DNA of 64,000 bases. Origin: Saccostrea echinata. Taxonomy: Eukaryota. Each line of letters begins with the position of its first letter. Position 1 is the first letter of the stretch. Shown in pieces: positions 7,594-30,579 of this stretch. The notes beneath the pieces were generated by a model that was not told where the DNA came from, ran no database searches, and saw nothing but the letters and a program-made list of their open reading frames with translations. Location: positions 9,052,001-9,116,000 of the forward strand of contig NW_026889778.1 of the NCBI RefSeq assembly GCF_033153115.1, given 5' to 3'. The translations under genes were made by a program, and so were the position numbers.

Positions 7594-8605
7594 TTTTTAA
7601 GTCACCTGCGTCACTCACCTGGCTCACTCATGTGACCTATTGCTATCGTTTTTTGTCCGTCGTGGGACGTGCGTCGGTCGTAGACTTTTGAACATTTTCA
7701 GTTTCTTATCTTGAACCGTTGAACCAATTTCAACCAATTTTGGCCAATAGCATCAACGGGTGAAAGGAATCCAAAATTGTGATTGGTCCCTGCTCTCCTG
7801 GGGACTGAGGGGTGGGGCTTAAATCGTCAAAACTACTGGACATCAAGCAATGAAACTGTTAGGATGATTGTAATAACCAATAAGCCTTCTACCAAAATTG
7901 TGAAATGCATGGCTCCAGAGGCCGGGGATCTGTAGTTAGGGCGGGGATCTAATGAACTTATAGCGAAAACGCATAAATTCTTTAAAAATCTTTTCTTCCC
8001 GTGTATATTTAGCAGATAAACTAGGTGCGTGGTTATGATGAGCATAAGTGCCTCTTCAAAAATTGTAAAAAATTGGGTTCTTGGGGGGGGGGGGGGGGCT
8101 CTATTGTTCATTCATGAAGTGAAAATGCATTATTTCTACGAAAATCTTGTGACTTTCATGACCTCTGGGTCAAGGGTTCGGGGGGGGGGGGGTAGGCTCC
8201 ATTGATTATATAGCAAAAACTCTGAGAATATCTCTGCTTCTGGGTATTCAGCAAATAAACCAAGTGCATAGTTATTGTGAGCAAGCGTGCTCACAAATTT
8301 GTGAAATTTGTGGACCCAGTGTCAGGGGTTCAGGTGTTGGGAGGGGGCTCTATGGATTATATACTGAAAATGCATCATTTCTTTGAAAATCTTCGTGTCT
8401 TATCCTAGATATTAATGAAATATGGAGACAACGAACAGTATTCAAGCTCAAAGTCCATTTAAACAGTAAAAATCGGAAGCAGAGCAAACAGCAAACAAAG
8501 TAAATGCATGGATATGATAAGCAAGGGTGCGCCTCTTCCAAAATTTTGAATTTAATGGCTCCAGGATTAGGGATTTTGGTTTTAGGACAGGGCTCTATTG
8601 ATTGT
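7594..8605 (+). mobile_element. Helentron-type element, 5' part with degenerate ~167-bp monomers
   Basis: Starts GTCACCTG...GTGACCTATTGCTATC...GTCCGTCGT and is colinear with 38811 onward; about 4.5 monomers; 3' end missing. Confidence 0.8.
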
Positions 8606-9076
8606 ATTAAGTATATTTTGTAGCTGCAATGTTATTGTTAATAAATTAATTGTTCGATAACTTGTGTGATTTTTCCTTTAAGGGAAGAGATCGTGCGTAA
8701 ATTAGGTTCGATCGATTCCGATTTTTAATCGTGCGTGGACACTATTTTCTAAAGAAAATAACCCCTGAGATGAGTGGTTTTGAGGATTTTTCTCCTTAAA
8801 TCTTAGGAATTAACGACATTAATGATGTCACAGAACTGTTCTCCTTCATGCCATATTGTTTCATGATTTATCATATTCATACACTCTACTCATATTTACG
8901 CCAATTTCGAGACTTTGAAAACTTCAATTTTTAAGGCACAATAAAATTACAACCGTACGTACTTCTTTCGCAAAGTGAAAGTCGTGCCAAACGTGCATGT
9001 CAATCTCTTTCGGCTGTCTTTGTGTTTGACGATAGTGGGCGGGGACTATGGAAATAAACATGGAACACTCGTTCTG

Positions 9077-15169: not shown

Positions 15170-16075
15170 TTTAACAATTAGTATGAAAAACGTCAGTCAG
15201 CATTTGACACAATGATAGGTTGTATGTGCTGACAGGGTCATTGTATCGACCGAAAAACTTGCAAAAAGATGACTTAAAGCGACTTTGTTGATATCCTTTG
15301 TTTCATCAATTTGTTTGTCAATAGCTTGCCTCGTTTTAGAAATTGTTCATAGAGCATGCTCTGGCGTATCGAATCAACTGAGAGACATAAACCCCATATG
15401 CAGGTGATAAGGGTATATTACTACTTCAGTAAGTTGAAACTTTGAAAAGTTGAATTCATCACCTTTATCATAACGCTTTGTTGTTAAGTTACCATTAATG
15501 CCTCTTTCTAGTAAAATATCTAAATATGAAACAGATGTGTCAGAATCAGTGGTATCTTTTATTTCAAGCTCACTGGGATATATCGAGTCGAAATATGAAT
15601 GAAAGTAACTATTGTTAATTGATAATACGTCGTCGATATATCGAAATGTCGAGCTGAAGGCCACAACAACTGTTTTCTTCTTCTCATGTAGAAGTCTTTG
15701 AATAAATTCTGTTTCATATGAATACAAAAATAGGTCTGCTAATAAGGGGGCGCAATTGGCACCCATGGGACTTCCAAAAGATTGTTGGAAGACCTGATCT
15801 CACAAAACTACATAGACATTGTCAATCAGAAACTCAAGCATCTTTTTAAAATCAACTTCAGAGTACTTGTGTGTACAATCAGAGTGCTTTTTAACAAAAT
15901 AATTTGGTAAATGACCAATGACAAGGTAAGTATATTTACGAGTTCCATTTTTTATTAAAAAAGCAGATGTTTATGATGTCAAAAAGCTTGGACTTCAATT
16001 TATCGTGGAGAATGGTTGGATAAAGTGTTGAAAAGTCGTACAATTTGATGCCATTGATTTTGGATGTGAATAGAT
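15170..16075 (-). pseudogene. Penelope-like (Naiad-type, tentative) reverse transcriptase fragment
   Basis: YDFSTLYPTI, PMGANCAPLLADLFLYSYE, FRYIDDVLSINN, IYPSELEIKDTT, SYLD motifs; frameshifts present. Confidence 0.85.
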
Positions 16076-23580: not shown

Positions 23581-23778
23581 TTTAGGATGAAGCTCTAAGA
23601 AATGTTAAGGCACAAATTGCTATTGATAATTAAATTAAAGGACACTGACTGCATGTCCCTCACTGATTAAGATGACTGTTCTGCTAAAAAAAATTAATAA
23701 TTAAAAATAATTACACTTTATATGAACTTTATTATGTCACCGGGTTCACAGGTGCGTGAAAGTCAGTCAATATATCGG

Positions 23779-23873
23779 GTCTCAATAGCTCAGTGGTTTG
23801 AGCGCTGGCACGGTACACCAGAGGCCCTGGATTCGAGTCCCAGTTGAGACTTGATTTTTCACCACCTGTGACA
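23779..23873 (+). mobile_element. Short tRNA-derived SINE / pseudo-tRNA
   Basis: Cloverleaf 23779-23850 (GTCTCAA/TTGAGAC acceptor stem, A and B boxes), but no U33 and mismatches in the anticodon and T stems; short tail follows. Confidence 0.65.
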
Positions 23874-23974
23874 TTATATAATATGATTTTTTTTAATATG
23901 GGGGGAGTGGGGGCACGCTGCTCCTATTGCCATGGTAAATTGCTGTACAGTGCAGGGAGTAGTATTAGCGGCTA

Positions 23975-24141
23975 TACACCGGGGGTAAACAATGGGTCTT
24001 TTGTTAGAACGAACAATGGATCTATTGTTAGAATGACCTTGACCGATTTTCAGTGCATAGGTAGTAAACAATGACCTTGACTGACTTAATACAATTAGAC
24101 TCTCAGATATACACCGGGGGTAAACAATGGGTCTTTTGTTA
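23975..24141 (+). repeat. 34-bp direct repeat in Polinton terminus
   Basis: TATACACCGGGGGTAAACAATGGGTCTTTTGTTA at ~23975 and ~24108. Confidence 0.9.
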
Positions 24142-24533
24142 TTCATAGACCATGACCGATGCGCTGCAACAGTAATAGGAATGGGGGGAGAACGACTCTC
24201 TACGTCACGGACAGATGTCACGCTACAGTCTACTCATGGGGAACAGACACAATGGAAGGGGAAAATGGAATGACGTCAACACAAGGGTTGACATAAAAAG
24301 AGATATTTAATAAAAAAAAAAAAGACAGGAGGATTTTTTGAGAAAGGCAATACAAAAAAAAAGAGTTGAGAGTGACGTCATTGATGAACATGAAAGAGAA
24401 AATACAAAAGGATTTTTTTAAACCAATGACTGACTTTTGAGTGACCGTGACCTTAAGTTTCGATAAAAGGAGATGAAATCCAAAAGGAGGATCATTCCGT
24501 TGAGGAGAAAGGAGCTAAGCGAAGAGGGGAAAA

Positions 24534-25037
24534 ATGTCAAAGATTAAATACGAAAAGGCACTGGAAGGAGAAAACAAGGGTCTTGAACATTTCTTGAGAA
24601 AGAGTGCAGCTGTCAAAAATCTCATCGACAACTACATTGCCAACAATATGAACTCCAACTCTTGCGACTACTGCACAAAACATTACGCACTGAGAAGTAA
24701 ACTGGTGCACGAAAAACATTGTCTTGTAAGATTGGCCATGGAAGCCACACTGGATGTTATGAAGATGTCTACATTTTGTCTTCGGGCACAGGACATCGAA
24801 TGCGAGACCTGGAAGGAGATCGACAACAACGAAGTCTTAGAAATAATCATGGCCGAACGTATTCCCTACGATGTCATGGAGGGTGCTTATTACGAATCAA
24901 TTTGGGAAGATTACTACTACCGGAGACTAGAATATCTGTGGCCAGACGGAGTGTGGCGTAAAGAAGATCCATGTGATTTAACTGTGGCCAGACGGAGTAA
25001 AGAAGATCCATGTGATTACAACCCAAATGATCATTAA
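24534..25037 (+). CDS. Polinton hypothetical protein (167 aa), possible C2HC zinc finger
   Basis: Open ORF with CDYC-x12-HEKHC; upstream GATAAAA (24462) + TCATT (24492); AATAAA at ~25143. Confidence 0.7.
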   Translation: MSKIKYEKALEGENKGLEHFLRKSAAVKNLIDNYIANNMNSNSCDYCTKHYALRSKLVHEKHCLVRLAMEATLDVMKMSTFCLRAQDIECETWKEIDNNEVLEIIMAERIPYDVMEGAYYESIWEDYYYRRLEYLWPDGVWRKEDPCDLTVARRSKEDPCDYNPNDH

Positions 25038-25290
25038 AAAAAGACAAGTTAAATATAATCATGTTTTTATTTTGTTTGTGTCATATCTTTAAACATTGGA
25101 GAGGTAAAAATTGTTTGAATTATATTGAATGTATGAAAGTTTAATAAATGATGAGAAAACGTCTATTGTATTGTGTTCATCTTTGATGGAGGGATATTCT
25201 TCAATGAAACGATCCAGTCTCCTATACGATCTTAAACGAGACTGGTGTCAAAAAGGGGATGCGAGAAAAAACTTTTCATTTTGACTGTTT

Positions 25291-25803
25291 TTATTTCGTT
25301 GGATGAATGACGAGAACATGTTTATCATACATTTGAGCAAATTCTTCGATAGCTGTCAAATAAACGTTCCAGTCTCCACCAGCAAGTCCACATCCTATCT
25401 TATAGGGAAAGGCTATCTTTTGAAAAGAAGTCTGTCCGAGCTCGTGCAGACATTGTTGAAACCAAAATATCCTGTTTTCTTTTGTATCAGCAAAAGGTGG
25501 AATGGAACGTTTTCGAACGTTATGACAGCGACCGAAATCCCACTGGGAGAGAAAACAGACCACAGCAGGACATTCTGATTGCCGAAAAATGCAAAGTGTG
25601 CCCGGAATTCCTCGGGTCTCTGTGGTAGCTAAGTTGCGTTTTCCTACGGATTCTCTCAGATTGTAAATATCGGCCCATGGATATTTTTTAGCAATTTGAT
25701 GTGAAAGACCATGCGGTTTGACGGTCAAACAATTCACTTGATGACAAATGGCATCAACATCGGTTAGGGTCAAGATGTCCCCATACACTTGACGAATGCT
25801 CAT
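25291..25803 (-). CDS. Macrodomain protein (TARG1/DarG/ALC1-like class)
   Basis: GDIL...ICHQVNC...GLSHQIAKKYP...IAFPYKIGCGLAGGDW signature; intact 170 aa. Confidence 0.92.
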   Translation of the reverse strand: MSIRQVYGDILTLTDVDAICHQVNCLTVKPHGLSHQIAKKYPWADIYNLRESVGKRNLATTETRGIPGTLCIFRQSECPAVVCFLSQWDFGRCHNVRKRSIPPFADTKENRIFWFQQCLHELGQTSFQKIAFPYKIGCGLAGGDWNVYLTAIEEFAQMYDKHVLVIHPTK

Positions 25804-26062
25804 TATAAGTCCGTACTCTTCAAACGAAGACTATCATCTGATTTTTTTTAAAGGTATAACTCATATATAAAACCCTTTTCCTCTTAACGTTTTCTACACC
25901 TTTATAAAAAACGAGAGAGAAAAAACTCATCACATGTCAATGAAATTTTATTAAAAAATCAGTTTTCTGAATACACAACAATCATTAATGGTATATCATA
26001 CAGATAAATGATCAAAGTATATCACGTAACAGTCAAATCAATGTCTCTCAAAGAAACGGAAT

Positions 26063-26572
26063 TCACCAATTTTCCCATCCGTCTGGATTACAGGCAGGGC
26101 ACTTCAGCATCCCAATTTGATTCAGATGATCATTCTGATCGTAACAGGGTACGAATGTTTCCAATTCCGGAATGGCATTAAGGATGTTTTTCCATTGATC
26201 CATAAAGTGTTCGTATTCCTGGGGTCGAAGACATAAACCCTTCTTTGTTGGAACAGACTCGTCTGTTTGAGGGGGTTTCCAGTATTGACGTATGTCGACA
26301 CAGGGGTTGTTTTCCCTCACGGATACGAAAACATTGTATCCCAAGTGCCACTTCCTCTCTTGGTTTTGTTTCAGGGCTTCCTGTACAGACTCCAGATAAT
26401 TCGACAGTGATTTAATTTGATGTAGTTTCAAAGATATTCCCTTTTTAGTGGGTATGATTTTTTTCTCTCCAACCATGTACTCTCGCATGTCCAATCGAAC
26501 TTCGTTTTGCCAAATGGAGACTTTGGCATAACGTCCATTTTCAAGAGCGACGGATAAACGTAAGTCTGACAT
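26063..26572 (-). CDS. Tandem PC4 (Sub1-like) ssDNA-binding protein with C-terminal Cys/His motif
   Basis: Two PC4 repeats (LDMREY...PTKKGISL; VDIRQYW...PTKKGLCL), then PCY...H...CPAC. Start placed at MSDLRL (26572) because the track ATG at 26626 overlaps the TATA box. Confidence 0.9.
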   Translation of the reverse strand: MSDLRLSVALENGRYAKVSIWQNEVRLDMREYMVGEKKIIPTKKGISLKLHQIKSLSNYLESVQEALKQNQERKWHLGYNVFVSVRENNPCVDIRQYWKPPQTDESVPTKKGLCLRPQEYEHFMDQWKNILNAIPELETFVPCYDQNDHLNQIGMLKCPACNPDGWENW

Positions 26573-26660
26573 GATCTGAGTAGAAGCTGACTGAAGAATG
26601 AAGTTCGATGTCTGTATCGCCTTCATTTATAGAGAAACAGAGGATACCTGGGTAATTCCA

Positions 26661-26902
26661 TGACGTCAAAGTCGGAACCGTGAAAACACGAACAATGAAA
26701 TGTATTGTTCTCGCCCACCCTCCATAAAAAATAAGTTCACGTCTACTGAATAGAGATGACGTCAATATAGAAACAGGGTATTTATATCTAATGATATAAT
26801 TTAACAAGACTAAAGGTCACGAATCCTAAAAAAACGAACAATGACGTCAAAGACATAACATTTTCTTTGTTGTCGTGAACAAAGGGTAGTCTTCTGACGT
26901 CA
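26661..26902. promoter_or_regulatory. Four perfect CRE palindromes in the divergent PC4/IAP promoter region
   Basis: TGACGTCA at 26661, 26757, 26842, 26895; flanked by outward-facing TATA boxes at 26631 (-) and 26976 (+). Confidence 0.6.
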
Positions 26903-27036
26903 TTCTGTGAGCTCTTATTCATCGATAAACAATGAAGTCTCACTATGGAAATGAATGATGTGTGACAGGTGAAAGTATAAATGAGGTTGTTTCCCACCTC
27001 GTCATCATTTCCACGTACAAGGTTTGAGGTAGCAAG

Positions 27037-27567
27037 ATGTCTTCTTCCCTAGATTGTGCAGCAAATTTCGTGGAGACGGATTCCAGTGCCGAACATTCTT
27101 GGAACGATTATTCCTCACTAGAGGTAAACCCTTCCACATCTTGGGATTCCAGTGCCAACTTTGCCTGGCGTTATCAAGAGAATGAAGAGGGGTCAAACGG
27201 TTCTCGAAATGTCGTGACCAGACAGATCAAGAACATTCCACCACCGCCTCCTCCTCAACATCAACTCTGGCAGTATCCAGAATACGTCACTTTTGCCTCG
27301 CGGTTTGCAACGTTTTGGGACTGGCCAAGATACTTGAAAGGACCCAACAAAAAAGACTTGGCTCGAGCTGGATTTATCTACACACAGATCGGAGATAAAG
27401 TGACCTGTTTCTGCTGTGGAATGACACTGAAAAATTGGGAACCCATCGACGATGCCTACCAAGAACACCTTCGTTGGTCCAAGAATTGTCAATTCGCTCA
27501 GATGGTGTCTGATGGAAAGAACGAGAATTACAGGAAAGGAATTCATCCCAGAAATAATTTTCGGTGA
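27037..27567 (+). CDS. Single-BIR inhibitor of apoptosis protein (no RING)
   Basis: RFATFWDWP...LARAGFIYTQIGDKVTCFCCGMTLKNWEPIDDAYQEHLRWSKNC with complete C-C-H-C Zn ligands. Confidence 0.93.
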   Translation: MSSSLDCAANFVETDSSAEHSWNDYSSLEVNPSTSWDSSANFAWRYQENEEGSNGSRNVVTRQIKNIPPPPPPQHQLWQYPEYVTFASRFATFWDWPRYLKGPNKKDLARAGFIYTQIGDKVTCFCCGMTLKNWEPIDDAYQEHLRWSKNCQFAQMVSDGKNENYRKGIHPRNNFR

Positions 27568-27893
27568 AAGAAAAACTAACATTGGTCTTAAACTCTAAAA
27601 TGTATCTTATTGGTTCTGGGATTTTTTTTTGGTTCAAGTTGCTCGTCAAGAATCCGAATAAACTGATCAAGGACACTTAAAGTGCTCCGAGCCGTATTGG
27701 CGGAGATCGACCATAGTAGTGAGACGGGCAACACACTGATATTTTTGTAATTTTCTTTTAATATTAGAATTGTATGAATAAAAATGATATCCAAACCTGA
27801 TACTTGTCTTTTGTTGTATTTGTGTATAACTGAGGATATAAGAGTAGAGGTGTACATGACATATCGTCATTCCAACGTCGAACGTCAGGACGT

Positions 27894-29028
27894 ATGGACA
27901 TGGAAGAATATTTGGAAAAAAATATGGTACGATCCTCGACATCCCGGTTCTTTTGCCGGACCCTCTAAACTTTATCAGGTGGTGAAACAAGAGGGTAAAT
28001 TCAATATTGGTATGACTAAAATAAAAAAATTTCTACAGAACCAGGACGCTTATTCGCTACAAAAGAAAGTGCGTAGAAAGGGGTTTAAGAGGAGGAGAGT
28101 CGTGGTTCAAGGTATAGACTACCAGTGGGAAGCCGACCTGGCAGACGTTCAGAACTTGTCCGAATACAACGATGGCGTTCATTTCCTCCTCGTGATTGTC
28201 GACGTCTTTTCTCGGTTTCTATGGGTCCGGCCCTTAAAAGACCGAAAAGCCAAATCAGTTATTGAGGCGTTTAAGGACGTGTTTACTGGATCGAGACGCC
28301 CCCGAGCCATAAGAACCGATAAGGGATCTGAATTTTATAACCGATTTCTTCAACAGTATCTAAGAGACCAAGGAATCAAGATTTTTTATGCCTTGAACGA
28401 GACCAAAGCCAATTTTGCCGAGAGATACATTCAAACGTTGAAAAAACGTCTGTATCGATATTTTACGCACTTGCAAAAATACAAGTACCTGGACATCTTA
28501 CAGGACGTGGTTCAGTCCATCAACCACACCCCTAACCGATCGCTGAAAGGTCGCACGCCGGCTTCTGTGACCAAGGAAAACGAAGACGAAGTGAGACTAG
28601 ATGCCTATCAGGTTCGTCATCGAAGGGACACTCGGATTCCTAAAGTGAAGAAATCGTCCAAGACGAAAAAACGTTTACCTTACACATTTAAAGTGGGAGA
28701 CCAAGTACGAATCACGCACTTGCGACGTCTCTTTCAGCGGGATTACGACCAAACGTACACCGAGGAAATCTTTGTGATTCGAGATCGTTTCGTGTCTCAA
28801 GGCATCCCCATCTACAAACTGAAGGATTTGACAGACGATCCGATCCAAGGTACTTTTTATGCCAGCGAACTACAGAAAGTGATCAAAGACGAGCAGACGA
28901 TCTGGAGAATCGATAGGATTCTACGTAAACGCAAGGTTCGGGGTAAAGAAGAAGTGCTGGTGAGATGGTTGGGATGGCCCAAGAAATTCGACAGTTGGAT
29001 TCCGAAAAGCGATATAAAAGAGACGTAA
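27894..29028 (+). CDS. Polinton RVE (DDE) integrase with C-terminal chromodomain
   Basis: WYDPRHPGSFAG; catalytic D (WEADLAD), D (TDKGSEF), E (AERYIQTLK); FKVGDQVRI; VLVRWLGWPKKFDSWIP. Natural start probably MDMEEYLEK at 27894, needing one fewer A in the run 27916-27922. Confidence 0.93.
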
Positions 29029-29058
29029 TCTCTATTCCTCGTATCACTTTCCTTCGAG

Positions 29059-29466
29059 ATGTCTATGCGTATGGTTCTCAAGTCGACGGACAGTGCCACC
29101 GATCATCCCGACAATCGACCGGGAAACTTCCGAGTGCGTTTACCCAGACCCTTACCTTTGACGGGTGATTGGACGGTGGAACTGACCGAGTTTAGAAACA
29201 CCAAACTCGGGAAAACGACCGACAAGGAAATTTTCGTCTACTGTTCGGTCTGCGATGACAGCATCGTGGGAGGCAGTCAAAAACCTCTACTGAGACGCAT
29301 CGTCCTGAAGGACAACAACAACGTGATTTTTCTTCGCCCTTATAAGATCCCTTTACGCTCCAATGACCTCAGAGACATCCACGTGTATATAAAGGACAAG
29401 CAAGACACAGACGTTTCATTCTTGACTGGAGAGTCCACGGTGACGTTAGTATTTCATCGTCTCTGA
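29059..29466 (+). CDS. Polinton minor capsid (penton-like) protein, short form
   Basis: HPDNRPGNFRVRLPRPLPLTGDWTVELTEF and IFVYCSVCDDSIVGGSQKPLLRRI...VTLVF motifs. Confidence 0.82.
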   Translation: MSMRMVLKSTDSATDHPDNRPGNFRVRLPRPLPLTGDWTVELTEFRNTKLGKTTDKEIFVYCSVCDDSIVGGSQKPLLRRIVLKDNNNVIFLRPYKIPLRSNDLRDIHVYIKDKQDTDVSFLTGESTVTLVFHRL

Positions 29467-29470
29467 CATC

Positions 29471-29917
29471 ATGTCTGGGCCGACGTACGTTTCGCATCCT
29501 TCGTTGTGGGAACAATTTAGACACACCGAGAGGGGAGAAAACTTCATTCCGACGATTAGAAAGAAAAGCCAGAGAGGGGGTGGCATATTAAATCGAAGAA
29601 GAGCCTACATGATTCCCGTGAAACATGTCGCTACCCCCAAGTCGGAAATCCCTCAAGTCACACCCGTTGCAGCCGAGCGAGAAAGAGCCCTGTCAGATCT
29701 GAAAGAAACCATGCGTAACGACGAGCCGCACATGCCCTTACAAAAATCTATAAAAAAGAAACCCCGAAAAAAAGGTATCAGTCGTTCCTCGACGCTCAAA
29801 GGGAAAAGACGTGTCCCGACGAAGAGACAGAAGCCTCCAAAGAAAAGGAATCTCAAGAAGAAGCCAAAAGGAAAAGGCAAGCCTAACTCGCATCCCGACG
29901 GAAAACCCATTTTTTAG
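29471..29917 (+). CDS. Basic Lys/Arg-rich core-like protein
   Basis: 148 aa, very K/R-rich C-terminus, QRGGG motif; lies between the capsid genes. Confidence 0.72.
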
Positions 29918-29922
29918 CATTC

Positions 29923-30201
29923 ATGTCTTTTCTGAGCGACATCAATACGAGCACGGCAGAACCATGCGAACTCTCTCTTTTCACCGATCCTCCCAATCAA
30001 GTGGCTCTTCAAAAGATATACTTTTCGGAAACTCGTCCCATATCGTCCTTCGACGCCGACGACGCTCCGCTCGAATTTGCCATCCCCGGAAGCGGAAACG
30101 AGTATCTCGATCTGAGAAGAAGTCGACTTTACTTAAAAGCCAAGATCACCAAACCCGACGGCACGGCCCTGGCCGGTTCAGAAAAGACCGGGATCATCAA
30201 C
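29923..30201 (+). pseudogene. Polinton major capsid protein, N-terminal ~93 aa only
   Basis: [11 protein letters not shown]...[32 protein letters not shown]...GIIN, then abrupt switch to AT-rich host DNA. Confidence 0.88.
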
Positions 30202-30579
30202 CCGAGAATACAAAGCAGCGCTTTACAAAGGGAATAAATTATAATGACCATTAAATCCATTACTAAACATACTGATGATAGTTGGATTACTGACAGTATG
30301 GTGTTATGAAGCATAAAAGATATGGGAAGAATTTTTCTCGCATTCGAAAGAACTCGGCTGGGAGATCGACAATCTTTTGCAATTGCAAGGTCTCTTTTAC
30401 ATTAGAACGATTGTTTGTGATCCGACCAGTAATTTTCAGTGCTTATGAAATATTCTGAAAGATATGGTATTTTATTCTTATTTTTAAAATGTCCTTTGAA
30501 GTCGCAAAGAATTAAATAGTACATTTGTTATGGCGCACAGCGAAATGGAGGAAGTAAGATTTCTAGCTAGGACAAAATA

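Follow-up and report, generated by a model that had tools for sequence, protein, structure and literature searches.

A probable truncated Polinton arm in the oyster Saccostrea echinata carries macrodomain, tandem PC4 and single-BIR IAP genes

Here we describe a locus of the oyster Saccostrea echinata, found within a window of 64,000 nucleotides (contig NW_026889778.1, assembly GCF_033153115.1), in which an end motif of Polinton (Maverick) type is followed by four uninterrupted accessory ORFs and then by genes for an integrase, a probable minor capsid protein, a basic protein and a probable major capsid protein (Table 1). Membership of the group is indicated by (AGT)2 or (AG)3 at the end, and a sequence check found AGTAGT here; (AGT)2 is reported as the most frequent end motif of vertebrate Mavericks (PMC8097293). 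The probable terminal region holds a 34-bp direct repeat (23973-24006 and 24108-24141) and reached a depth of 342 at 24005-24305 in DNA run X1, against 30-48 across the accessory genes, while self-BLAST found no second terminus within the window. The combination of end motif, accessory region and putative integrase-minor capsid-PW-major capsid order is that of published Mavericks, whose accessory regions are described as holding varied ORFs. The same succession of accessory slot, integrase, penton, small basic protein and hexon is drawn for beta-adintoviruses (Starrett 2021, PMC8502044). As a whole, the locus is best explained as a young Polinton of the oyster (polintovirus, Orthopolintovirales) with a beta-adintovirus-like layout, of which the left arm is present, cut short and inactive, a reading that we hold to be probable though well short of certain; at the same strength, the stretch from terminus to integrase would be the element's variable accessory region. 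The earlier note had likewise proposed a Polinton arm, a reading that the analysis supports. The locus itself is a common type of fossil.

Table 1. Features of the element and the evidence for each (positions in the window)
Positions	Strand	Feature	Evidence
23958..23963	+	Polinton/Maverick 5' end motif (AGT)2	Sequence
23958..24305	.	Probable terminal inverted repeat region, right edge approximate	Self-BLAST and read depth
24271..24380	.	Two perfect CRE palindromes (TGACGTCA), 5' of ORF1	Motif search
24534..25037	+	ORF1, 167 aa; conserved C-x2-C-x11-H-x2-HC, probable zinc site	Conservation among relatives
25291..25803	-	Stand-alone macrodomain, 170 aa; SCO6735/BT1257 subclass of TARG1/ALC1-like class	Profiles, model, fold comparison
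26063..26626	-	Tandem PC4 protein, 187 aa; two repeats and C-x5-H-x8-C-x2-C tail (probable zinc site)	Pfam, profile, motifs
26627..27036	.	Divergent region common to PC4 and BIR genes; putative promoter	Four CRE palindromes and TATAAA
27037..27567	+	Single-BIR IAP, 176 aa, no RING; acidic N-terminal arm with proline run	Pfam, zinc pattern
27784..29028	+	Retroviral-type integrase with C-terminal chromodomain; first ~45 codons non-conserved as called	Pfam rve, Chromo
29059..29466	+	Probable minor capsid protein (penton), 135 aa	Place in INT-mCP-PW-MCP module and presumed motifs
29471..29917	+	Basic protein, 148 aa, pI 11.4, at PW/Cupiennin position	Composition, synteny
29923..30202	+	Probable major capsid protein, first ~93 codons; element ends here	Presumed motif and synteny

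The series of integrase, penton, basic protein and major capsid protein given in the earlier note fits the published module in order and size, and the integrase was confirmed by Pfam (rve 1.4e-10, Chromo 5e-8) and by the presence of the D-D-E motifs. The two capsid labels drew no confirming library match and come from synteny together with motifs that we take to be characteristic of these proteins. The basic protein is a probable genome-binding core protein. In a scan of IMG/VR the BIR alignment gave 1/17, a giant-virus contig, the integrase 0/1, and the macrodomain alone 0/8 stretches. Two of 26 capsid-fragment matches in IMG/VR were discarded as chance, both being of 40 residues at E 2e-4.

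An intact Maverick has all core ORFs whole and both ends, whereas here the capsid gene is cut, the right half is missing and the start of the integrase looks broken. The major capsid frame departs from viral sequence at ~30202, and long contigs of DNA runs X1 and X3 match the S. echinata copy up to 30202 and then continue with different sequence. An indel table places a frame break in the 414-aa integrase ORF near 27.9 kb, as judged against the entire contig depth at that point in each of the two DNA runs. Unlike the full beta-adintovirus layout of Starrett 2021 (PMC8502044), this copy is without pPolB, ATPase, protease and right end. It is dead and cannot be active; we rejected the view of it as a recently active copy on the grounds of the cut capsid gene and the apparently frame-broken integrase start. 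What survives of the recent activity once read from the intact ORFs concerns the family, which looks young, given that copies in contigs of other DNA runs are ~99% identical to one another.

All four accessory ORFs are genuine genes linked to the element. Independent DNA runs join them in contigs of ~99% identity, which in X1 cover 24235-26562 and 26560-27665. They do not form a fixed cassette: X1 depth of 30-48 over the four genes compares with 96-263 over the core, with a step at about 27.6 kb. This depth suggests that most core-related copies in X1 are without the accessory block, which would make the block dispensable or swappable. Across the contigs spanning 24235-27665, 8 of the 21 listed X1 differences were coding, compared with a coding share of the span of 62% (P=0.025); the changes listed for the four genes themselves (5 synonymous, 3 non-synonymous) are too few to show selection. 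Expression, proposed earlier as a check, was not seen in the poly(A) run X16, of which 1.9 Gb were read and in which the depth across 24607-29723 was zero. Coverage by X11 was patchy and took in non-coding DNA. In none of 161 fetched loci was the query match accompanied by a further element gene, and no distant full cassette was seen.

Gene labels assigned from the letters alone (a zinc-finger-like ORF1, a macrodomain, tandem PC4 and a BIR-only IAP) were borne out for the macrodomain, PC4 and IAP genes, and ORF1 has a probable zinc site. Of 109 candidates, 8 are relatives of ORF1, all unnamed or hypothetical save one with an automatic label, in which the CxxC..H..HC pattern is conserved; ORF1 has no match in Pfam, PHROG, NCBIfam or Atlas, and its structure model (pLDDT 50) is unusable. 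The IAP carries a single, complete BIR domain (Pfam 5.6e-23, 81.7 bits against a cut-off of 22.9) with a complete zinc pattern, C-x2-C-x16-H-x6-C (C124, C127, H144, C151). Its groove residues look type II-like under the residue numbering that we assume. Seven of its 36 relatives are named, all as Saccostrea IAP-like genes. Single-BIR genes of Saccostrea include XP_061170586.1, XP_061190926.1 and XP_061170273.1.

Both stretches of the PC4 protein are recognised by Pfam (E 4.5e-21, 74.5 bits against a cut-off of 25), and its profile matches 1PCF at 2e-13. Each repeat carries the D-x-R arginine and the Lys-Gly motif found in PC4/Sub1 (PF02229; 1PCF), from which the oyster protein differs in having two repeats per chain, a putative one-chain pseudo-dimer, and a Cys/His tail. 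Its relatives, about 1000 clusters, are largely molluscan where known; Atlas matches score under 0.9 and serve as a lead only. Of 340 fetched proteins, 12 (one cluster) fuse tandem PC4 to the minor-capsid ORF and one fuses it to a Polinton-type integrase, 13 in all. No BIR was present among 150 PC4 relatives.

The macrodomain was identified by PHROG (7e-16) and by a model of pLDDT 94, which superposes on BT1257 (2FG1) with Z 17.1 (rmsd 2.3, 144 aligned) and on SCO6735 (5E3B) with Z 15.3; profile matches to BT1257 (3e-11) and SCO6735 (5e-7) both precede TARG1 (1e-5). With SCO6735 (5E3B) and BT1257 (2FG1/2AFC) it has in common the fold, the active-site His/Asn/Gln and the GCGLAGG loop, the equivalents of SCO6735 Gln85, Asn27, His24 and Gly128 being Q87, N24, H21 and that loop. 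In SCO6735, which removes PARP10 marks from uracil, Gln85 and Asn27 are both required for activity, and the aligned Q87 and N24 are invariant in 39 close relatives. The TARG1/DarG catalytic lysine (Lys84/Lys80) is absent, with Gln at the same place. The oyster protein differs from SCO6735 in that Q22 replaces Val25, so that the SCO6735-type Val/Ile at position 25 is not kept, and in the loop that follows the Gln, which is longer and basic (residues 88-111 hold 6 K/R); Lys89 of the SCO6735 DNA-binding loop has no direct match, though the loop is basic. It also differs from both proteins in being encoded by an animal virus-like element and in that its hydrolase activity is predicted. Judged by these residues, the predicted Gln/Asn/His site for taking ADP-ribose off thymine or uracil is kept, and the macrodomain is likely an ADP-ribose-removing enzyme. 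Opposition to PARPs, as suggested earlier, is too broad a description, as the predicted target for this class is mono-ADP-ribose attached to T/U bases or to acidic residues, not poly-ADP-ribose.

The best viral fold match of the macrodomain is a nimavirus wsv206-like protein (E 2.9e-16, TM 0.86). An endogenous nimavirus, a DNA virus of invertebrates, is reported to have the two kinds of gene seen here together, a wsv206-type macrodomain and BIR, although it is an unrelated 280-kb virus, several of whose IAPs have introns and RING domains (PMC7016691). In IMG/VR, the best 80 of 270 macrodomain matches were relatives at ≤49% identity, none with another element gene; in a metagenome scan (best 80 of at least 264), identity among the matches listed was likewise ≤49%, with no other element gene. 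A quick tree gave SH-aLRT 87 at the key branch and included no host TARG1 or ALC1, so no donor is shown. Mercenaria has four macrodomain genes.

These observations lead us to propose that the accessory genes are viral early genes that would aid the element's survival inside the host cell, with a counter-defence function that we infer. Six CRE palindromes occur in 986 non-coding bases, compared with a simulated mean of 0.02; in the region between the PC4 and BIR genes they lie at 26661, 26757, 26842 and 26895, with TATAAA at 26976. Host CREB/ATF factors would turn on the accessory genes through these CRE-rich promoters. The tandem PC4 protein would then serve as a one-chain binder of the strand displaced in protein-primed replication, and the RING-less BIR would bind a caspase or an IAP antagonist, delaying cell death. 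The macrodomain would strip mono-ADP-ribose from T/U bases of displaced ssDNA or viral RNA or, alternatively, clear it from acidic residues, in either case reversing marks set by host mono-PARPs.

An unlikely alternative, which nonetheless deserves weight, is that the genes mainly support replication: PC4 would be an ssDNA binder or co-activator, the macrodomain would clear incidental repair-linked ADP-ribose or small-molecule derivatives in the manner of Poa1p, and a defence role would fall to the BIR protein only. The fold comparison accommodates this, as Poa1p (Z 16.0) scores roughly equal to BT1257 and DarG (Z 16.2); close PC4 relatives show no defence link, and a role in transcription is hinted at by one hard-clam PC4 gene whose number adjoins that of a TBP-like gene. 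Such a reading is harder to reconcile with the CARD fused to 5 of 150 PC4 relatives, with PARP14-like genes being among the expanded families of the hard clam, or with the joint presence of macrodomain and BIR in nimavirus. Less probable again is that the four genes were gathered independently in a hypervariable slot as a passing combination of no joint function. The X1 depth step, the diverse ORFs of Maverick accessory regions and the very unequal sets of relatives (ORF1 8, macrodomain 1150, BIR 36 and, in a different search, PC4 998) would be expected of such cargo, whereas the CRE-rich divergent region common to PC4 and BIR, and the renewed adjacency of PC4 and IAP in a clam of another order, would not.

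ALC1's macrodomain is a reader, and we give little credence to the idea that the oyster macrodomain is a non-catalytic, ALC1-like reader or sponge of ADP-ribose, shielding marked sites or recruiting the element to damage. Absence of the TARG1/DarG lysine and a Gln that is also conserved among ALC1 homologues are compatible with it; against it stand the SCO6735 loop, the absence of any ALC1 chain among profile matches at E 0.1, and the lower structural score of ALC1 (Z 14.2) relative to BT1257. Finally, host genes captured at the locus, or retrocopies that received a Polinton fragment, are barely credible: annotation does list the BIR gene and its relatives as host IAPs, yet all four genes are internal to the end motif and occur joined in other copies, giant-virus and nimavirus proteins are among the non-bivalve relatives of the macrodomain, and the accessory genes occupy both strands, so that a single mRNA cannot have carried all four.

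Returning to the accessory genes as viral early genes, Polintons that multiply and decay would disperse BIR, PC4 and macrodomain genes without introns, later to be annotated as host genes. Bivalve IAPs of this kind (single-exon genes with one BIR, dispersed and mostly silent, with DNA transposons enriched close by) have been interpreted as retrocopies, and the BIR+PC4 type is known in clam and mussels; the main texts of these studies do not mention Polinton or Maverick (PMC7831173, PMC8917759, PMC13159474). The oyster gene differs from those published in sitting within a Polinton and adjoining a PC4 gene. In the hard-clam genome paper, intronless IAPs are ascribed to retroposition and BIR+PC4 is called a host innovation. 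In that paper's table, 8 of the 13 expanded PC4-family genes are numbered adjacent to an IAP (chance 2e-20), adjacency being read from gene numbering. The two supplementary tables use different gene ids, so that the 8 PC4-adjacent IAPs stand unmatched to the clam's intronless clade 1 of 42 IAPs. The recurrence of the pairing in clam suggests viral cargo among the "expanded host" cell-death genes of bivalves, and it strengthens the earlier note's proposal of Polintons as a plausible route for the spread of bivalve IAP genes. As to whether the arrangement was already catalogued, IAP genes in bivalve Polintons are published: Starrett 2021 (PMC8502044) reports IAP and Bcl2 homologues in adintovirus-type elements, with "IAP" labels by the maps of Mytilus and Pinctada and "SSDBP" by those of two cnidarians. 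We found no report there of macrodomain or PC4 in the main text or the readable supplement.

We therefore advance, as a tentative proposal with the balance somewhat against it, that a considerable share of the single-BIR genes counted as the bivalve "host IAP expansion" (dispersed, without introns and silent), together with the BIR+PC4 "innovation" of clams and mussels, consists of early genes of Polintons that DNA transposition has spread. In the same proposal, the T/U-type ADP-ribosyl hydrolase beside an ssDNA binder in these elements would indicate that molluscan PARPs attack displaced viral ssDNA at its bases, an animal counterpart of bacterial DarTG. An SCO6735-type macrodomain in an animal virus-like element would offer an assayable handle on PARP base-marking of ssDNA or RNA as an antiviral defence. 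Furthermore, bivalve IAP expansions are commonly interpreted as host adaptation to stress; if many intronless IAPs are Polinton cargo, the counts of genes, the "BIR+PC4 innovation" and the view of these expansions as adaptive would need revision.

The element, whose start we read from the sequence as the AGTAGT at 23958, is an ordinary truncated Polinton arm. According to the accessible text of PMC8097293, the same motif is the commonest vertebrate Maverick end, and the gene order in the window agrees with the integrase-minor capsid-PW-major capsid module and flanking accessory region published there. On end motif and integrase the earlier note's Polinton identification holds, and ORF calling bears out its four intact accessory genes between terminus and integrase. 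Searches of Pfam, PHROGs, NCBIfam and PDB sequences gave no match for the two capsid-position ORFs, whose labels we presume from motifs. G+C is 42% in the element versus 35% in its flanks.

Features of the element and other repeats and open frames in the window
Feature	Position	Strand	Remarks
ORF1	24534-25037	+	167 aa, uninterrupted
Macrodomain ORF	25291-25803	-	170 aa, uninterrupted
PC4 ORF	26063-26626	-	187 aa, uninterrupted
BIR ORF	27037-27567	+	176 aa, uninterrupted
Integrase	3' of BIR ORF		414-aa ORF, rve and chromodomain
Minor capsid position	3' of integrase		135-aa ORF, label presumed from motifs
Basic ORF	3' of 135-aa ORF		148 aa, pI 11.4
Major capsid position	from 29923, 3' of basic ORF		label presumed from motifs
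High-copy repeat	23733-23875, just left of terminus		looks tRNA-derived (SINE-like) on visual inspection; depth very high in each of the four runs compared
~168-bp repeat arrays	39027-40684, 7832-8607, 961-1543	both	we take these to resemble an oyster satellite/Helitron-linked repeat
Open frame	49888-50436	-	presumably Harbinger-type transposase fragment
Open frame	55280-55747	-	presumably Harbinger-type transposase fragment
Open frame	15377-15799	-	presumably Penelope-type reverse-transcriptase fragment

The recent activity that had been read from these intact ORFs does not apply to this copy, which is dead: its capsid ORF ends at 30202 and its integrase start is probably frame-broken, an assembly consensus error being possible. 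No second Polinton end lies within the 64-kb window. Four of the 24 listed sequencing runs were compared with the window. Contigs from two DNA runs filed under different organism labels align up to 30202 and then pass into other sequence (218 of 518 bases in X1, 349 of 2238 in X3), so other copies extend past the point at which this one breaks off. All X1 and X3 depth near 27.9 kb carries an indel relative to the window, with more in X1 at 27.6-27.9 kb, so that the opening ~45 codons of the 414-aa ORF probably do not code in other copies. Judged by a copy-to-copy identity of ~99% (17 differences in 2324 bases and 9 in 1112, among the 24 of 6648 pieces listed), the family is young; copies of 24235-30202 this similar under two organism labels may reflect a very young family, recent interspecies transfer or a labelling matter.

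The identity of the accessory genes, their conserved sites and their linkage are matters of observation; as to function, we lean towards an early-gene block that would be switched on through host CREB/ATF sites. In it, PC4 would coat the strand that protein-primed replication displaces, mono-ADP-ribose on T/U bases or on acidic residues would be stripped off by the macrodomain, and the BIR protein would delay cell death. Absent from the earlier note and added here are six perfect CRE palindromes in 986 non-coding element bases (simulated mean 0.02), two of them upstream of ORF1 and the other four in the interval that separates the divergent PC4 and BIR genes. Six more lie outside the element (21035, 33023, 35926, 42627, 42783 and 46725) against 0.64 expected for the whole window, so the motif is over-represented in host DNA too. 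Expression was not seen: depth is zero over 24607-29723 in the poly(A) run X16 (1.9 Gb), and DNA could account for the patchy, low coverage in a further run, X11.

An alternative that we consider appreciably less probable is that the block supports replication with no role in defence. That the genes are loose cargo is improbable, that the macrodomain is a reader only is very improbable, and capture of the accessory genes from the host is least credible.

The PC4 protein consists of two PC4 repeats and a Cys/His tail, and has 998 related clusters; the best 150 relatives include one with an integrase, five with CARD and none with BIR. CARD is fused to tandem PC4 in P0184, P0191, P0218, P0229 and P0305, two such clusters including named proteins of Crassostrea angulata and of three species of Mytilus; from their domains, these proteins are possible ssDNA sensors or decoys. 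The BIR protein lacks a RING but shows the zinc pattern in full, and NCBI also annotates it as a gene; 36 of 40 candidates are relatives, with a common N-terminal arm. ORF1 has eight relatives with a conserved CxxC..H..HC core, its search returned no family, and its predicted structure was unusable.

X1 contigs covering 24235-26562 and 26560-27665 join all four, and the block travels with the element. Independently of X1, PC4 is linked to the element by proteins in which tandem PC4 is fused in frame, in 12 of 340 retrieved (one cluster, P0173, contigs of 1.3-1.4 kb) with the minor-capsid ORF and in one (P0276) with a 47%-identical Polinton-type integrase, which are probably internally deleted Polinton derivatives. 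Among 161 retrieved loci, on distant viral and microbial contigs, none had a second element gene beside the match. By depth the block differs from the core: X1 depth reaches 342 in the terminal 300 bases, falls to 30-48 across the accessory genes and stands at 96-263 from integrase to capsid, and X3 depth is 2-9 over the accessory genes versus mostly 8-12 over the core, which suggests a variable block and many core-related copies without it, although depth does not equal copy number. Only 8 of the 21 X1 differences listed within 24235-27665 (from 26 across the two contigs) are coding, though 62% of the span is (P = 0.025); five are synonymous and three non-synonymous.

For the macrodomain, 1150 of 1299 candidates are relatives, the 120 listed including six named bivalve genes, one shrimp gene and one nimavirus wsv206-like protein; one Mercenaria cluster holds four genes on four scaffolds. 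Its predicted structure (pLDDT 94) best matches BT1257 (Z 17.1, rmsd 2.3, 144 aligned), followed by DarG (16.2), Poa1p (16.0), TARG1 (15.5), SCO6735 (15.3) and ALC1 (14.2), and, among viral models, a wsv206-like protein (E 2.9e-16, TM 0.86). The sequence profile gave BT1257 (3e-11), Poa1p (2e-7), DarG and SCO6735 (5e-7 each) and TARG1 (1e-5). H21, N24 and Q87 align to His24, Asn27 and Gln85 of SCO6735, and the GCGLAGG loop is identical; SCO6735 differs in that its Val25 is Gln in the window and its Lys89 has no direct match. The accessible text of PMC9411070 states that thymidine-ADP-ribose hydrolysis by SCO6735 needs Gln85 and Asn27, that TARG1 and DarG have lysine in place of Gln85, and that Gln of the SCO6735 type is common to ALC1 homologues; this last point and the two differences were counted against SCO6735-type hydrolysis. 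Uracil marks laid by PARP10 on ssRNA are reversed by SCO6735 (accessible part of PMC13036486) and 2'-OH RNA marks are not (that of PMC11833690). Across 39 close relatives N24 and Q87 never vary, and in a set of 95 their conservation is 90% or higher.

The seven BIR relatives that carry names all come from Saccostrea, where they lie on several scaffolds and bear host IAP annotations. A quick macrodomain tree of 156 rows, from which short proteins and two fused models were dropped and built without host TARG1 and ALC1, indicated no donor; all five bivalve-labelled rows, the window's included, fall in one group of 43 rows, supported at SH-aLRT 87 and surrounded by rows from giant viruses and nimavirus.

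The content of the accessory region is in part already catalogued: Starrett et al. describe IAP and Bcl2 homologues in adintoviruses, and the available Fig S2 text sets IAP labels beside Mytilus and Pinctada maps (PMC8502044), so IAPs in bivalve Polintons are known. An endogenous nimavirus carries wsv206-like macrodomains and BIR genes together (accessible part of PMC7016691). Macrodomain and tandem PC4 in a Polinton accessory region are apparently unreported: our literature search gave no paper that links Polintons with a macrodomain, and a single record containing both 'Polinton' and 'PC4'. Repbase, subscription journals and preprint supplements, outside that search, may hold such annotation. 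The accessible text of the Polinton-related preprints searched mentions neither macrodomain, IAP nor PC4, and that of the bivalve IAP papers PMC7831173, PMC8917759 and PMC13159474 mentions neither Polinton nor Maverick.

In the available parts of their paper, Song et al. place 42 intronless one-BIR clam IAPs, mostly silent, in one clade interpreted as a retroposition burst, find DNA transposons enriched around IAPs, and consider the BIR+PC4 type an innovation found in clam and mussels (PMC7831173). The accessible expanded-family table of that paper (supplementary file 7), with family borders taken from row order, holds a block of 13 PC4-like genes. When both neighbouring gene numbers were checked for all 13, assuming numbers to be positional, eight adjoin an IAP (1.3001/3000, 11.1573/1574, 11.1748/1749, 13.2100/2101, 17.1995/1994, 7.1298/1299, 7.143/142 and 7.35/34), one a TBP-like gene (6.530/6.529), and for the remaining four the table lists no neighbour. 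All eight IAPs come from a single block of 24 rows, whose genes are spread over many scaffolds; for 23 of these rows the best Swiss-Prot match is OsHV-1 ORF99. Chance adjacency would be 2e-20, or 7e-14 with all 159 IAPs, the pairs not being independent. Table ids do not map to those in the first of the ten parts of the paper's IAP table. Close pairs also occur among IAP genes (6.155/6.157, 6.550/6.553) and TBP-like genes (3.1615/3.1617, 8.3019/8.3021), and one TBP-block row (11.1068) has a best hit of the PC4 family.

Retrocopying of a single mRNA does not normally bring a neighbouring gene along. The pairs, known from gene numbers, suggest that clam PC4 and IAP were copied as a unit; Mavericks are that clam's largest DNA-transposon class, at 1.69% of the genome (accessible text of PMC8905726). 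The window element points to a cheap test of the published explanation for the expansion of IAPs in bivalves.
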